Shown: positions 5,661 through 45,787 of the stretch, piece by piece | How the letters are laid out: the number at the start of each line of letters is the position of its first letter | How positions within the stretch are numbered: the first letter of the stretch is position 1 | NCBI RefSeq assembly: GCF_003334765.1 | Contig: NZ_QOWT01000004.1 | From: Escherichia coli | GTDB lineage: Bacteria > Pseudomonadota > Gammaproteobacteria > Enterobacterales > Enterobacteriaceae | Length of the DNA stretch: 64,000 bases | Reading direction: 5' to 3' (one strand) | Program-made: the position numbers and the translations under genes | Notes under the pieces: generated by a model | What the model was told of the DNA's origin: nothing | Seen by the model: the letters and a program-made list of their open reading frames with translations, nothing else | The model's database searches: none

Positions 5661-6689
5661 ATGCGCGTACTGCTATTTTTACTTCTTTCCCTTTTCATGT
5701 TGCCGGCATTTTCGGCTGATAACCTGTTGCGCTGGCATGATGCGCAGCATTTCACGGTGCAAGCCTCTACGCCGCTTAAAGCCAAACGCGCATGGAAACT
5801 GTGCGCGCTTTATCCCAGCCTGAAAGATTCATATTGGTTATCGTTGAACTATGGTATGCAGGAGGCTGCTCGCCGCTACGGTGTGGATTTAAAAGTGCTG
5901 GAGGCAGGCGGCTACAGCCAGTTGGCTACCCAGCAAGCACAAATCGACCAGTGTAAACAGTGGGGCGCAGAGGCCATTTTGCTCGGTAGTAGCACGACCT
6001 CATTTCCCGACCTGCAAAAGCAGGTAGCAAGTCTGCCGGTGATCGAACTGGTAAATGCTATTGATGCTCCCCAGGTGAAAAGCCGCGTTGGTGTGCCCTG
6101 GTTTCAGATGGGCTATCAACCGGGGCGATATCTGGTGCAATGGGCGCACGGTAAACCACTGAATGTGCTGTTGATGCCCGGACCCGATAACGCCGGGGGC
6201 AGTAAGGAGATGGTCGAGGGTTTTCGCGCAGCCATTGCCGGAAGCCCGGTGCGTATTGTTGATATTGCGCTTGGTGATAACGATATTGAAATCCAGCGTA
6301 ACCTGTTGCAGGAGATGCTGGAACGCCATCCAGAAATCGACGTCGTTGCCGGAACGGCCATTGCGGCAGAGGCGGCAATGGGGGAAGGGCGTAACCTGAA
6401 AACGCCGCTTACCGTGGTGTCGTTTTATCTTTCACATCAGGTGTATCGCGGGCTGAAGCGGGGAAGAGTGATTATGGCTGCCAGCGATCAAATGGTCTGG
6501 CAGGGGGAACTGGCGGTTGAGCAGGCCATCAGGCAATTACAGGGGCAATCGGTTTCTGATAATGTCAGCCCACCGATTTTAGTTCTGACGCCGAAAAATG
6601 CCGACCGTGAACATATTCGCCGCTCGCTGTCACCAGGGGGATTTCGTCCGGTCTATTTTTATCAGCACACATCAGCGGCTAAGAAATAA
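5661..6689 (+). CDS. torT: Periplasmic TMAO-binding protein TorT
   Basis: 342-aa ORF with signal peptide and periplasmic-binding-protein fold features; divergent from torS. Confidence 0.9.
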   Translation: MRVLLFLLLSLFMLPAFSADNLLRWHDAQHFTVQASTPLKAKRAWKLCALYPSLKDSYWLSLNYGMQEAARRYGVDLKVLEAGGYSQLATQQAQIDQCKQWGAEAILLGSSTTSFPDLQKQVASLPVIELVNAIDAPQVKSRVGVPWFQMGYQPGRYLVQWAHGKPLNVLLMPGPDNAGGSKEMVEGFRAAIAGSPVRIVDIALGDNDIEIQRNLLQEMLERHPEIDVVAGTAIAAEAAMGEGRNLKTPLTVVSFYLSHQVYRGLKRGRVIMAASDQMVWQGELAVEQAIRQLQGQSVSDNVSPPILVLTPKNADREHIRRSLSPGGFRPVYFYQHTSAAKK

Positions 6690-7354
6690 CCTTCACCATG
6701 TTGCGTCACCAGTAAATCCGCGCTGAGTTTATGACGTAAACGACGAATTAACACATCGACGGTGCGCAGGTCAGGGTTTTCCACCCGACGCGCAGAAAGC
6801 ATACGTAGCAGACGTTCACGGCTGAGAATTTCGCCCGGATTCGTCACAAATGCCACCAACATTTCATACTCTGCGCGGGTCAGTTTAATCGGCTCGCCAT
6901 CCCGCTCCAGCGTATGGCGCGACACATTCAGGCAATAACCGGCAAAGCGATAGCAGTTGTCCTGAGTGTGCGGTTGAGCTTGTCGCGCGAGGTCGATTCG
7001 CCAGAGCAGATTTTTCACCCGTACTACCAGTTCGCGCAGTTCCAGCGGTTTGGTGACGTAATCGTCTGCGCCCATTTCCAGCCCAACAATACGGTCAATC
7101 CGATCGCTGCGTCCGGTAACCAGAATAATCCCCACCGTTGAGCGTTCTCGCAGGGCGCGGGTTAACATCAGGCCATTTTCATCGGGTAAGTTGATATCCA
7201 GCAGAATTAAATCTACCGACTGATTCTGCATAATTTCCCGTAGCCCGGCACCGCTCGCCGTAACGGAAACGGTATACCCCTCCTGAGTGAAGTAGGATTG
7301 TAATCGCGCCTGGGTAACCGGCTCATCTTCAACAATAACAATGTGATGTGGCAT
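6662..7354 (-). CDS. torR: Response regulator TorR (OmpR family)
   Basis: 230-aa ORF with receiver domain (VEDEPVT...DINLPDENG) and winged-helix C-terminus; 3' end overlaps torT 3' end by 28 nt. Confidence 0.95.
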   Translation of the reverse strand: MPHHIVIVEDEPVTQARLQSYFTQEGYTVSVTASGAGLREIMQNQSVDLILLDINLPDENGLMLTRALRERSTVGIILVTGRSDRIDRIVGLEMGADDYVTKPLELRELVVRVKNLLWRIDLARQAQPHTQDNCYRFAGYCLNVSRHTLERDGEPIKLTRAEYEMLVAFVTNPGEILSRERLLRMLSARRVENPDLRTVDVLIRRLRHKLSADLLVTQHGEGYFLAADVC

Positions 7355-30755: not shown

Positions 30756-31586
30756 ATGTTTGTTCCGTTTCTCATTATGTTGCGCGAAGGACTTGAAGCC
30801 GCGCTGATTGTCAGTTTGATTGCCAGCTATCTTAAGCGTACCCAGCGAGGCCGATGGATTGGTGTGATGTGGATTGGCGTGTTGCTTGCCGCTGCGTTGT
30901 GCCTGGGCTTGGGTATCTTCATTAACGAAACCACCGGCGAATTTCCGCAAAAAGAACAGGAACTGTTTGAAGGTATCGTGGCGGTGATCGCCGTGGTGAT
31001 CCTTACCTGGATGGTTTTCTGGATGCGCAAAGTGTCGCGCAACGTCAAAGTGCAACTGGAACAGGCAGTCGATAGCGCATTGCAGCGTGGAAATCATCAT
31101 GGCTGGGCGCTGGTGATGATGGTCTTTTTTGCCGTTGCAAGGGAAGGGCTGGAGTCGGTCTTTTTCCTGCTGGCGGCATTTCAACAAGATGTCGGGATCT
31201 GGCCGCCGCTGGGTGCAATGCTCGGTCTTGCTACTGCCGTGGTGCTAGGCTTCCTGCTCTACTGGGGCGGTATTCGCCTCAATCTTGGTGCATTTTTTAA
31301 ATGGACCAGCCTGTTTATTCTCTTCGTCGCCGCAGGGCTGGCAGCTGGTGCCATTCGCGCATTTCATGAAGCCGGATTGTGGAACCACTTTCAGGAAATC
31401 GCCTTCGATATGAGTGCGGTGCTCTCAACTCACTCGCTGTTTGGCACGCTGATGGAAGGGATTTTTGGCTATCAGGAAGCGCCGAGCGTCAGCGAAGTCG
31501 CCGTCTGGTTTATTTATCTCATCCCGGCGCTGGTGGCATTTGCTCTGCCACCACGCGCAGGGGCGACAGCGTCTCGCTCCGCGTAA
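30756..31586 (+). CDS. efeU: Ferrous iron permease EfeU (FTR1 family), apparently intact
   Basis: Uninterrupted 276-codon frame from MFVPFLIMLREGLEAALIV with two REGLE motifs (REGLEAA, REGLESV) and multiple TM segments. Confidence 0.9.
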   Translation: MFVPFLIMLREGLEAALIVSLIASYLKRTQRGRWIGVMWIGVLLAAALCLGLGIFINETTGEFPQKEQELFEGIVAVIAVVILTWMVFWMRKVSRNVKVQLEQAVDSALQRGNHHGWALVMMVFFAVAREGLESVFFLLAAFQQDVGIWPPLGAMLGLATAVVLGFLLYWGGIRLNLGAFFKWTSLFILFVAAGLAAGAIRAFHEAGLWNHFQEIAFDMSAVLSTHSLFGTLMEGIFGYQEAPSVSEVAVWFIYLIPALVAFALPPRAGATASRSA

Positions 31587-42276: not shown

Positions 42277-43635
42277 ATGGAAAAAGACTATTTGAGAATG
42301 AGTAGTACTGTATTAGTGAGCTTATTGTTTGGGCTTGCTTTGGTTTTGGTGAATAGTTGGTTTAATCAGCCAGGCGTTGAGGAAGTTGTTCCACGATCAA
42401 CCTATCTGATGGTAATGATTGCTTTATTTTTTATCGATACTGTTGCATTTATTTTTATGCAGTTGTATTTCATTTATGACCGTAGGCAATTTTCAAACTG
42501 TGTACTTAGTTTGGCTTTTCTGAGTTGTTTGATTTACTTTGTTATAACCGTCATTATCATTCAGCAAATTATTGAGGAGCGTTTGACAAGCAGTGTTGTC
42601 CAAAATGACATTGCAATCTATTATTTGTTTCGTCAGATGAGTTTGTGCATATTAATATTTCTGGCATTGGTGAATAAAGTTAGTGAAAACACAAAACAGC
42701 GCAATTTATTTTCCAAAAAAATGACTTTGTGCATAAGTTTGTTTTTTGTTTTTGGGGGGCCGATAGTTGCTCACATACTTTCTAGTCATTATGAGAGCTA
42801 CAATTTACACATTGCCGAGTTAACCAATGAAAATGGTCAGGTGGTTTGGAAAGCCTCATATGTTACCATAATGATTTTCATGTGGTTAACCTTGCTTTCG
42901 GTTAATCTATACTTTAATGGTTTACGCTATGATATCTGGAATGGAGTGACGGTGATTGCTTTTTGTGCCGTACTGTACAATATCTCTCTGTTATTTATGA
43001 GCAGGTATAGCGTGTCCACTTGGTATATTAGTCGCACTATTGAAGTAGTCAGTAAGTTAACCGTTATGGTAATATTTATGTGCCATATATTCAGTGCGCT
43101 ACGAGTAACAAAGAACATTGCACATCGCGATCCCTTAACCAATATATTTAACAGAAATTATTTTTTTAATGAACTGACAGTTCAATCAGCATCAGCCCAA
43201 AAAACGCCTTATTGCGTCATGATTATGGATATCGACCACTTCAAAAAAGTCAACGACACCTGGGGGCATCCGGTTGGCGATCAGGTGATAAAAACAGTGG
43301 TGAATATCATTGGGAAAAGCATACGACCAGATGACCTTTTAGCGCGCGTCGGCGGCGAAGAGTTTGGCGTCTTGCTGACGGACATCGATACTGAACGTGC
43401 GAAAGCTTTAGCGGAAAGGATTCGGGAAAATGTTGAGCGTTTAACTGGCGATAATCCTGAATACGCTATACCACAAAAAGTGACGATTAGTATTGGCGCT
43501 GTTGTGACTCAGGAAAATGCGTTAAACCCAAATGAGATCTATCGACTGGCTGATAACGCACTTTACGAGGCGAAAGAGACCGGGCGTAATAAGGTGGTTG
43601 TGAGGGATGTGGTGAATTTTTGTGAGTCACCATAA
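42277..43635 (+). CDS. dgcT: Diguanylate cyclase DgcT/YcdT (MASE4 membrane domain + GGDEF)
   Basis: 452-aa frame from MEKDYLRMSSTVLV; N-terminal polytopic membrane domain, C-terminal GGDEF domain with RVGGEEFG active-site motif. Confidence 0.95.
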   Translation: MEKDYLRMSSTVLVSLLFGLALVLVNSWFNQPGVEEVVPRSTYLMVMIALFFIDTVAFIFMQLYFIYDRRQFSNCVLSLAFLSCLIYFVITVIIIQQIIEERLTSSVVQNDIAIYYLFRQMSLCILIFLALVNKVSENTKQRNLFSKKMTLCISLFFVFGGPIVAHILSSHYESYNLHIAELTNENGQVVWKASYVTIMIFMWLTLLSVNLYFNGLRYDIWNGVTVIAFCAVLYNISLLFMSRYSVSTWYISRTIEVVSKLTVMVIFMCHIFSALRVTKNIAHRDPLTNIFNRNYFFNELTVQSASAQKTPYCVMIMDIDHFKKVNDTWGHPVGDQVIKTVVNIIGKSIRPDDLLARVGGEEFGVLLTDIDTERAKALAERIRENVERLTGDNPEYAIPQKVTISIGAVVTQENALNPNEIYRLADNALYEAKETGRNKVVVRDVVNFCESP

Positions 43636-43981
43636 AGCGGCCTGGCACACGCGTTTGATGGAAGACGGCGTTCAGGCAATGCGCGATTATCTTGCCGGAC
43701 TGGATATCGCTTCGCCAGAGCATCAGGTTCTGATGAACGTAACAGCAAAAAGCGAGGTCGCTCCGTCAATTATCAAAGAAAATCTCTCATTACACTTAAC
43801 TCATACGGTGAAATGGACTGAATCTCTCGATACATTTCTGAATATGCCAACCCCGGTAGCTTTCCTTGAAATAAGTAATAAGCCCTATTTGGGGAATATG
43901 TTAAATGATTTTGCTGGCGTGGATCAGCAACGAGTTATGCATTGTCGTAAAGCATTTAGTGATGCAAAGGTATTCAAATGA
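43622..43981 (+). pseudogene. ymdE: ymdE, C-terminal fragment of a FabD-like malonyl-CoA:ACP transacylase
   Basis: 119-aa ORF alignable by eye to the C-terminal third of FabD (VKW/QWT, LEI/YEV segments) but lacking the N-terminal GHSxG catalytic region; overlaps ycdT 3' end and ycdU start. Confidence 0.6.
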
Positions 43982-44964
43982 TTCCTGATTATTTAACTTT
44001 TATTCGCTTTCAGGATAAACGAAATCTGATATACATTTATGCTATTGGACTTATTCTGATAGGCTTTTATTGGAAGAATGCAGGGTTTACTTTTCCATCA
44101 GAGGATATTGGTGTAGTTAGTGGGATTCTGGCTCTGGTGCTGTATAATTTTATTTTTGATCTCAAGGCGTACTGGGCTTATAAATGCGTCACGAAGAATA
44201 TCGATTTTTCGTGGTTTAAGAAAAAGCAGAACCACAAAATAGAATTATTTCTTACACAACCTCTGGTGGCAGGATTTCTGTCGTTAATCATGTTGAGTGC
44301 AATGAGTTGGGGGCTATACCAGCTTCTACCCTCGTTATATGCGCTGTTCCTGATTTCGTTACTTGGGCCGTTGGTCATCTTTCTGCTGTTTCGGATGATC
44401 CGCACCAGTTATGTCAAGCAGGTCGCTATTTCAGTAGCGAAAAAAGTAAAATATAAAAGTCTGACTCGCTATGTGCTGCTTTCGGTGTGCATCTCAACGG
44501 TTGTTAACCTGCTTACTATCAGCCCGTTGCGTAACAGTGATTCTTTTGTGACAGAGGGGCAGTGGTTAACGTTTAAATCGATAATTGCATTGCTCATTCT
44601 TTGTGGCGTAGTGTTGGCGATTAATCTGTTTTTTCTGCGCTTCTCCAAGCGGTACGCTTTTCTGGGCAGGCTTTTTTTGCAGGAAATCGATCTGTTTTTC
44701 TCCAGTGAAAATGCGTTGTCGACCTTTTTTGCCAAGCCGCTTTGGCTTCGGTTATTCATATTGCTGGTTATTGAAGTGATGTGGATTACGCTGGTGTCGG
44801 TATTGGCAACGCTTGTAGAATGGCGGATTTGGTTTGAAGCCTATTTTTTACTCTGCTATGTACCGTGCTTAATTTACTATTTTTTCTATTGTCGATTCCT
44901 CTGGCATAACGATTTTATGATGGCATGTGACATGTATTTCCGTTGGGGGCATTTTAATAAGTGA
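43978..44964 (+). CDS. ycdU: Uncharacterised inner membrane protein YcdU
   Basis: 328-aa AT-rich ORF with about 8 predicted TM segments. Confidence 0.85.
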
Positions 44965-45098
44965 GGAAGTGATAGGAAGTGACCAGATAATACATATATG
45001 TTCTGTACTCTCTTGCGCATTTTGATTGTTGACTGAGTAACCAGACAGTTGATGTGCACGATTTCCCCTCGCCCTAACAGACGTGGGCGGGGGCACCC

Positions 45099-45719
45099 GG
45101 TGTGTGCAATATACGAAAAAAAAGCCCGTACTTTCGTACGAGCTCTTCTTTAAATATGGCGGTGAGGGGGGGATTGACTCGCTTCGCTCGCCCTGCGGGC
45201 AGCCCGCTCACTGCGTTCACGGTCTGTCCAACTGGCTGTCGCCAGTTGTCGAACCCCGGTCGGGGCTTCTCATCCCCCCGGTGTGTGCAATATACGAAAA
45301 AAAAGCCCGTACTTTCGTACGAGCTCTTCTTTAAATATGGCGGTGAGGGGGGGATTGACTCGCTTCGCTCGCCCTGCGGGCAGCCCGCTCACTGCGTTCA
45401 CGGTCTGTCCAACTGGCTGTCGCCAGTTGTCGAACCCCGGTCGGGGCTTCTCATCCCCCCGGTGTGTGCAATATACGAAAAAAAAGCCCGTACTTTCGTA
45501 CGAGCTCTTCTTTAAATATGGCGGTGAGGGGGGGATTGACTCGCTTCGCTCGCCCTGCGGGCAGCCCGCTCACTGCGTTCACGGTCTGTCCAACTGGCTG
45601 TCGCCAGTTGTCGAACCCCGGTCGGGGCTTCTCATCCCCCCGGTGTGTGCAATATACGAAAAAAAAGCCCGTACTTTCGTACGAGCTCTTCTTTAAATAT
45701 GGCGGTGAGGGGGGGATTC
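45099..45719. repeat. Tandem direct repeats, 181-bp unit x 3 complete copies plus a 78-bp partial copy that continues into authentic serX
   Basis: Identical units begin at 45099, 45280, 45461, 45642; each contains a terminator hairpin plus A/T run and the 3'-terminal 19 nt of tRNA-Ser. Confidence 0.9.
45659..45686 (-). terminator. Rho-independent terminator of serX (hairpin with GAAA loop + U8)
   Basis: Minus strand reads gctcgtac-gaaa-gtacgggc followed by tttttttt immediately after the tRNA 3' end. Confidence 0.8.
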
Positions 45720-45787
45720 GAACCCCCGATACGTTGCCGTATACACACTTTCCAGGCGTGCTCCTTCAGCCACTCGGACACCTCACC
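45700..45787 (-). tRNA. serX: tRNA-Ser (anticodon GGA)
   Basis: Reverse complement gives GGTGAGGTGTCCGAGTGGCTGAAGGAGCACGCCTGGAAAGTG...GGGGGTTCGAATCCCCCCCTCACCGCCA: 88 nt, long variable arm, T-loop GTTCGAATC, CCA end. Confidence 0.95.

Follow-up and report, generated by a model that had tools for sequence, protein, structure and literature searches.

An IS3-free dgcT–ymdE–ycdU locus in Escherichia coli is very probably the scar of a lost insertion sequence and not the ancestral arrangement

We analysed a 64,000-nucleotide stretch of Escherichia coli DNA (contig NZ_QOWT01000004.1 of assembly GCF_003334765.1; hereafter the window), in which the diguanylate cyclase gene dgcT (ycdT), the acyltransferase-like gene remnant ymdE and the membrane-protein gene ycdU follow one another without an intervening insertion sequence (IS). 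This allele is very probably a derived scar, left by the secondary loss of an IS3 copy at a 2-nt GC microhomology. An initial annotation, made from the letters of the window alone, had described tightly stacked, IS-free frames and called the arrangement uninterrupted and probably ancestral. The stacking and the absence of an IS stand, but the uninterrupted, ancestral reading does not, since native ATTT and GTG(C) nucleotides are missing from the window and the outgroups are arranged differently. Absence of an IS does not equal ancestry at this locus: the IS-free allele is here the most derived state.

The three genes lie on the plus strand. dgcT occupies positions 42277–43635, ends in the stop codon TAA (43633–43635) and encodes a MASE4-GGDEF diguanylate cyclase according to the open reading frame (ORF) list and the PGAP and MG1655 annotations of identical sequence; Pfam MASE4 and GGDEF were matched on a gene identical to it from another E. 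coli locus. The ymdE remnant, an ORF of 119 codons with a GTG start, spans 43622–43981 (ORF list; profile and alignment comparison), and ycdU, which encodes a multi-pass membrane protein of 328 amino acids, spans 43978–44964 (ORF list; gene order in strains carrying the full island described below). The remnant overlaps dgcT by 14 nt (43622–43635) and ycdU by the ATGA at 43978–43981, just as the initial annotation had placed its start 14 nt before the ycdT stop and its end 4 nt inside ycdU. No insertion sequence had been noticed here, and a blastn search with IS3 as query found no copy in the entire 64-kb window. Junction alignments place the excision junction, AGCGGC/CTGG, at 43636–43645 (no strand assigned), with the left flank ending at 43641, the right flank starting at 43642 and the GC at 43640–43641 forming the 2-nt microhomology.

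K-12 MG1655 has IS3D at 1094245–1095502 between dgcT and ymdE, which confirms the copy that the initial annotation had placed there, and its ymdE is annotated as a pseudogene. Relative to the window, MG1655 contains 1266 additional nucleotides at 43641/43642, consisting of ATTT, the 1258-bp IS3 and GTGC: K-12 reads ...CACCATAAAGCGGC-ATTT-(IS3, 1258 bp)-GTGC-CTGGCAC..., and the window reads ...CACCATAAAGCGGC-CTGGCAC.... The K-12 junctions, AAAGCGGC-ATTT-(IS3)-GTGCCTGG, contain no 3-bp target-site duplication, as IS3D had by then deleted sequence next to itself. The ATTT on the left side of the element is native, since it is present downstream of dgcT in strain PS10-3, where the sequence 3' of the stop codon is AAAGCGGCATTT/TAGCGG; a foreign or IS-derived origin was thereby ruled out. 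The GTG(C) to the right is part of the acyltransferase gene and is found in K-12, in longer ymdE remnants and in the full-length gene. Both motifs are absent from the window, whose sequence, short of eight native nucleotides that K-12 has kept, cannot represent the K-12 allele as it was before the insertion. An insertion of IS3 into the window sequence could not regenerate ATTT and GTGC, and the IS-free allele is for this reason not ancestral.

The surroundings of the junction connect the window with strains that carry IS3. An 8-kb stretch around the site is 99.9–100% identical to MG1655, RM10410 and many other genomes, all of them interrupted at 43641/43642, and the IS3-bearing close relatives (K-12, RM10410 and others) retain 99.9–100% identity over 8–25 kb. 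The BLAST pieces on either side of the site (1–542 and 541–1401) share 2 nt. With 0–2 differences in 2.9 kb, as compared with more than 20 for B1-type alleles, the flanks are of the K-12/RM10410 haplotype, and the nearest relatives of the window on both sides carry IS3. Two features of an excision scar are present: near-identical genomes hold IS3 at this point, and the breakpoints lie 4 nt outside each end of the element at a GC repeat. Those of a never-occupied site are not, as the occupied allele has no duplication and contains eight additional native nucleotides. Nor do outgroups share the arrangement; they have either the full island with a 942-nt acyltransferase gene or dgcT followed by serX.

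PS10-3 and YZMc3-1 carry this 942-nt gene (313 amino acids) next to serX and ghrA, with an ATGA overlap into ycdU, and the full island was found in PS10-3. The order in PS10-3 is pgaABCD, dgcT, an EAL-domain gene, a fimbrial operon, a two-partner secretion pair (FHA/ShlB), an operon of ~15 genes and serX. The first part of the operon comprises acpS and genes for an SDR, a FabZ-like protein, an acyl carrier protein (ACP), an aminomethyltransferase-family protein, a double ketosynthase (KS-KS) and a single KS; the remainder consists of genes for an ATPase, an ABC transporter, a LolA-like lipoprotein-sorting protein, a hypothetical protein and the FabD-like protein, and of ycdU. This dgcT-to-serX island of ~31.5 kb is intact in about 390 complete E. 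coli genomes, as measured by the N-terminal part of the acyltransferase gene (390 of 5426; the query was taken from a metagenome contig), and strains with a full-length fabD-like gene, for which the initial annotation had proposed to look, thus exist in that number and carry the gene together with ycdU. The distant Enterobacteriaceae bacterium 4M9 has a matching cluster order that ends in a FabD-like gene and, after it, a homologue of YcdU with 43% identity. The islet is missing altogether from B2/D/F-type strains, and their dgcT, with a different 3' tail, is directly followed by serX. By these comparisons, dgcT, the ~31.5-kb island, the full-length gene and ycdU together are the true uninterrupted state, and ycdU is natively the last gene of a biosynthetic cluster, ATGA-coupled to the acyltransferase gene. 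YcdU itself matched no Pfam or NCBIfam family.

A separate observation concerns an ENA metagenome contig that holds, at 6001–6855, the acyltransferase gene of E. coli type as far as its N-terminal 203 codons. It diverges right after ...VSGAWH, within a few nucleotides of the K-12 IS3 breakpoint, into unrelated sequence, and the genes around it (RND pump, histidine kinase, FeoB) differ from the neighbours at the E. coli locus. Either chimeric assembly or a further rearrangement at this point may explain the contig.

Alleles preserved in natural strains indicate a series of four steps. The ancestor had dgcT and the ~31.5-kb island ending in the ~15-gene operon, with the FabD-like gene and ycdU as its last genes. 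IS3, 10 nt 3' of the dgcT stop, then became fused to the acyltransferase gene at codon 138 with the loss of 31,557 nt, a state found in 2013C-3264, which reads dgcT...GCATTT-(complete IS3)-GGCGGTTAAAGG and lacks this number of nucleotides in comparison with PS10-3. An adjacent deletion, visible as a further 186 nt gone beside the same IS3 end, created the K-12 type, in which IS3 abuts codon 200 without a target-site duplication and which is present in ~2200 of the 5426 genomes (left junction in 2300, right junction in 2195). In the window lineage, finally, IS3 and 4 nt on each side were removed via the 2-nt GC microhomology, most likely by transposase-dependent excision under stimulation by the protein IEE, the IS-excision enhancer (gene iee). 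The first three steps, and the fact of IS3 loss in the fourth, form the firm part of this scheme, as read from the alleles compared; the full four-step account is in our judgement very likely.

IS-free alleles are rare and diverse. A contiguous dgcT–ymdE match was found in only 29 of the 5426 genomes, 25 of which represent clean excisions, and at least six different IS-free junctions occur among them. The junction AAAGCGGC/GGTT, which retains the long remnant, is present in nine genomes including O104:H4 and is explained by a GGC repeat on either side of IS3 in alleles like that of 2013C-3264; a variant that keeps 26 nt of the long remnant was found in three genomes. Further junctions are AAAGCGGCA/GTGCC (three genomes, with the A of ATTT kept, as in B-1109), AAAGCGG/TGCC (two genomes), AAAG/TGCC (seven genomes) and AAAGCGGC/CTGG, which is identical to the window and occurs in two genomes, 2013C-4974 and OkiPb01713. 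EC09 contains a 50-nt IS3 stub, left by recombination at an 11-nt repeat, and internally deleted IS3 copies were found in E110019 and WS0115A. The breakpoints lie 0–8 nt from the IS3 end with 1–3 nt of microhomology, except for the OkiPb allele, which extends 160 nt further. Five other junction types behave like that of the window, with breakpoints near the IS ends and short microhomology, and the independent IS-free junctions of B-1109 (A of ATTT) and EC09 (50-nt stub) still bear the marks of an IS3 allele. The O104:H4-type long remnant without IS was considered as an ancestor and rejected, as in 2013C-3264 this long remnant adjoins an IS3 that is complete, and the GGC repeat explains the junction. 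The exact 119-residue ORF is present in 207 blocks of public assemblies, and all eight inspected contigs encoding it, which belong to several haplotypes, have the window-identical junction; two of them contain an SpLE1-type integrase directly after ycdU.

IS3-family elements follow a copy-out-paste-in route of transposition, and the donor site is normally not vacated. Kusumoto and co-workers are said, in papers that refer to their work of 2011, to have described IEE-stimulated excision of IS3-family elements. IEE, a primase-polymerase/helicase of 786 amino acids encoded on SpLE1-like elements, stimulates transposase-dependent excision of this IS family (PMC9943667; Chandler et al., preprint 10.1101/2023.06.07.543989) and possesses microhomology-mediated end-joining activity (Calvo et al. 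2023, PMC9943667). In its presence IS3 excision is complete, with an endpoint homology of at most 6 bp, whereas partial IS3 stays behind without it (PMC8860574). We scored iee with a chimeric query of 800 nt of junction and 600 nt of iee, reading presence from the number of matching places per record. Among the 29 contiguous-allele genomes, 24 gave an extra iee match, as did 23 of the 25 with clean excisions, and overall iee matched 741–1229 places in the 5426 genomes, that is, at most ~23%; three of the four alleles in which part of IS3 persists are among the five iee-negative contiguous genomes. SCU-104, an IS3-free strain of K-12 haplotype, has at the adjacent serX an SpLE1-like element with a 786-residue AEP-helicase gene, a 600-nt fragment of which is 100% identical to O157:H7 genes, and in several IS3-free strains serX is occupied by an SpLE1-like element with iee. 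These population data point to IEE as most likely involved in the window lineage. In O55:H7 USDA5905, ymdE–ycdU and iee lie within about 2.7 kb of each other, which suggests that a large deletion brought the iee of the SpLE1-like element beside ycdU.

If the window were an ancestral empty site, IS3 would have inserted into exactly this arrangement to give K-12, which indeed differs by IS3 at this position and has nearly identical flanks. This is extremely improbable, as K-12 has no target-site duplication but eight native non-IS nucleotides that insertion cannot create, the outgroups have the full island or no islet, and the few IS-free alleles fall into several junction types. A deletion that never involved IS3, either of 186 nt from a long-remnant allele of the O104:H4 type or of ~31.8 kb at once from the full island, could use a GC microhomology that those substrates also contain (AAAGCGGC/GGTT...GGTGC/CTGG), and an IS-free long-remnant allele does exist in nine genomes. 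Chance would, however, have to place each breakpoint no more than 4 nt from an end of the K-12 IS3. Long-remnant alleles were moreover seen only on the B1-type haplotype and never on the K-12-type haplotype of the window, excision of IS3 at the GGC repeat is also the best reading of the long IS-free allele, and the closest relatives on both sides carry IS3; we therefore regard an IS-independent deletion as unlikely. An artefact, whether a collapse of IS3 by the assembler or an engineered IS-free chassis, might be suspected because IS copies often cause assembly errors and IS-less K-12 derivatives exist. The identical junction in two finished genomes and many independent assemblies makes this scarcely credible, as do the eight flanking nucleotides, which assemblers would not remove. 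An engineered K-12 of the MDS type was ruled out by 13 single-nucleotide polymorphisms and two single-base indels relative to MG1655 over 47 kb, and by an intact efeU; the window also starts within a further IS-like end.

Several points weigh against IS3 loss through IEE at the microhomology as we propose it. There is no iee in the 64-kb window, where serX is unoccupied; iee was verified directly only in SCU-104, and clonality and pathotype confound its association with the IS-free alleles, since the strains are not phylogenetically independent and many of those without an IS are Shiga toxin-producing E. coli. At least two haplotypes share the junction of the window, a pattern that could reflect recurrence or a single event spread by recombination, and a microhomology of 2 nt is, taken alone, weak evidence. 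Spontaneous loss of IS3 by slippage or end joining, independent of RecA, transposase and IEE, would be expected to leave the same scar. Such a loss fits the empty serX and the missing iee of the window as well as the clean IS-free genomes CFSAN004176 and OkiPb01696, which show no iee match, and rare IEE-independent excision has been documented (PMC8860574). It does not account for the iee frequency among clean excisions as compared with the genomes overall, or for the IS3 fragments that iee-negative genomes mostly keep, as in the laboratory; in addition, a 2-nt repeat with its copies 1266 nt apart is a poor slippage substrate. Spontaneous loss is thus possible but, in our view, doubtful, and IEE-stimulated excision appears as the most likely mechanism.

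The 119-codon ORF at the junction aligns to residues 201–313, the last 113, of a FabD-family acyltransferase of 313 amino acids. That protein has GHSVG at 95–99 and AWH at 201–203. Both the N-terminal alpha/beta core and the nucleophile elbow with GHSVG are missing from the window ORF, which keeps the histidine of AWH, a motif that is invariant in an alignment including the full-length 313-residue E. coli protein and relatives of 306 residues; the initial view of ymdE as a FabD-like C-terminal remnant without the GHSxG region is thereby borne out. Two amino-acid differences separate the remnant from the C-terminus of the full-length WP_001362169.1-type gene, and the substitutions in the remnant (0–4 synonymous, 1–2 non-synonymous) are too few for dN/dS. 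A profile search, which had been named as a check on the acyltransferase similarity, matched the 119-residue product to NCBIfam TIGR00128 fabD with E=1.1e-9 (residues 6–74 against profile positions 196–264 of 290), at a score of 38.2 bits that falls short of the family membership cut-off of 260.9; no Pfam match was obtained for the product even at E≤10. Its best match in the PDB is 3ezo (E=1.8e-4), and solved structures of FabD, PksC and DisD align to the same C-terminal region. The longer remnant of other strains matches far better, with E-values of about 1e-11 to 1e-20, and PGAP labels the stretch 'ACP S-malonyltransferase, incomplete, missing N-terminus'. Judging from these matches, the acyltransferase similarity of the 119-residue piece is genuine but weak, and the ORF is an enzymatically dead remnant, unable to act as an acyltransferase. 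An earlier study reported that IS3 had cut ymdE short and that phylogroups other than A have a homologue of 945 bp, and found no IS-free or longer ymdE in phylogroup A (Goldstone et al. 2016, PMC4951805).

The two overlaps of the remnant differ in origin. The ATGA shared with ycdU is inherited, as it also joins the full-length gene to ycdU in PS10-3 and YZMc3-1. The 14-nt overlap with dgcT is an accident of the deletion junction, and the first six codons of the ORF, which consist of junction and dgcT-tail sequence, are products of the junction like the overlap itself. The last ~34 nt of dgcT in the window (43602–43635) are unlike the B2/D/F dgcT tail and common to full-island strains. Across strains, these ~34 nt are fully different between those with an island or islet (A, B1, PS10-3) and the B2/D/F strains in which serX follows dgcT; as the tail differs with island presence, the island boundary lies inside the 3' end of dgcT and alters its C-terminal residues. 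An IS3 origin of the dgcT tail was considered and rejected, because it rested on the 11-mer TGTGAGTCACC, beyond which local alignment found nothing and for which ~0.05 chance matches are expected, so that we take it as coincidence. This 11-mer lies at 43620–43630 of the window and recurs in IS3 ~55 nt from its ymdE-proximal end. In EC09, the deletion runs exactly between the two copies of TGTGAGTCACC, and the C-terminus of dgcT is altered.

Loss of the element may also have changed the expression of ycdU. Neither a terminator-like nor a promoter-like site was found on the plus strand between 43200 and 43978, a range that includes the interval from the dgcT stop to the ycdU start, and there is no promoter-like site in the 340 nt upstream of ycdU. 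Co-transcription of dgcT and ycdU in the window is therefore plausible from the sequence, and ycdU, natively a gene without its own promoter, is probably now read through from the dgcT promoter. The transposase genes of the K-12 IS3 point towards dgcT, and both IS3 promoters run in the transposase direction (PMC8860574). With its genes and promoters facing dgcT, IS3 would insulate ycdU from dgcT transcription in K-12, and it may send antisense transcripts into dgcT.

To the right of ycdU, positions 45096–45787 on the minus strand hold serX (tRNA-Ser) and an adjoining 181-bp tandem array of 3.4 copies that are 100% identical. Each unit matches the Rfam RtT model (three matches), and MG1655 has no annotated feature at the array. 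Its copy number varies: none in a B2-type locus, one in two compared loci, and three or more in another. Further to the left, the window has at position 30861 a base that is missing from MG1655 efeU, one of the two indels mentioned above, so that this iron permease gene is intact in the window and a frameshifted pseudogene in K-12. Positions 1–74 do not align with MG1655; we take them to resemble the terminal repeat of an IS5-type element. K-12 presumably has IS1D slightly further left of the window start.

That ymdE is a pseudogene and that IS3 is polymorphic at this locus was already known. The new points are the recognition of the IS-free allele as a recurrent excision scar associated with iee, and the survival of the whole evolutionary series: one chromosomal site preserves an insertion, a large deletion, a small adjacent deletion and multiple independent excisions, the latter strongly associated with iee. 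In ymdE and ycdU, the end of a ~15-gene acyl-carrier-protein/ketosynthase cluster has been left stranded; the cluster is intact in hundreds of E. coli strains, and this context provides a handle on the function of YcdU. According to one proposal, ymdE–ycdU belong to the core genes of mastitis-associated phylogroup A E. coli (PMC4951805). It may thus matter for the mastitis phenotype whether dgcT drives ycdU or IS3 cuts it off.

The closest known counterpart of the window locus is b1025–b1029 of K-12 MG1655 (dgcT/ycdT, IS3D with insE4-insF4, the ymdE pseudogene and ycdU), which has the same genes at 99.9% identity. Unlike it, the window is devoid of IS3D and of eight flanking nucleotides, and its ORF has gained a new 5' end (MSHHKA-). 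Among FabD and trans-acting acyltransferases (TIGR00128; TIGR03131, MdcH; PksC, 5dz6; DisD, 3sbm), the remnant aligns to the C-terminal third, conserved histidine included. The full-length E. coli relative shares GHSVG and Pfam PF00698 with FabD-type enzymes, whereas the remnant represents only 36% of the protein and lacks the nucleophile and the substrate-binding arginine region. With the IEE excision system, the alleles have in common the total loss of an IS3-family element, breakpoints that coincide with its ends or lie a few nucleotides outside them, microhomology of 1–3 nt, enrichment of excision alleles with iee, and partial IS copies where iee is absent. The locus differs from typical IEE excision in that it offered no target-site duplication to recombine.

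The sequence of events also resembles the insertion-deletion-excision (IDE) model of operon formation (Kanai, Tsuru and Furusawa 2022, PMC8860574), all three steps of which are kept here in natural strains: PS10-3 is intact, 2013C-3264 has the insertion and the 31.5-kb deletion, K-12 lacks a further 186 nt, and the window has undergone excision. According to the authors of the model, natural cases in which intermediates can still be detected were missing (PMC8860574), and in the searchable literature we found no later paper that reports a natural IDE example at this locus. The model was demonstrated on a laboratory plasmid, whereas in the present case a dead gene fragment separates the two genes. 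We suggest only tentatively that natural IDE operon formation has been caught in the act here, with every intermediate segregating and ycdU as a functional, co-regulated partner of dgcT. The end product is nevertheless IDE-like in its form: dgcT and ycdU, formerly ~32 kb apart, now stand in one tightly packed, co-directional array.

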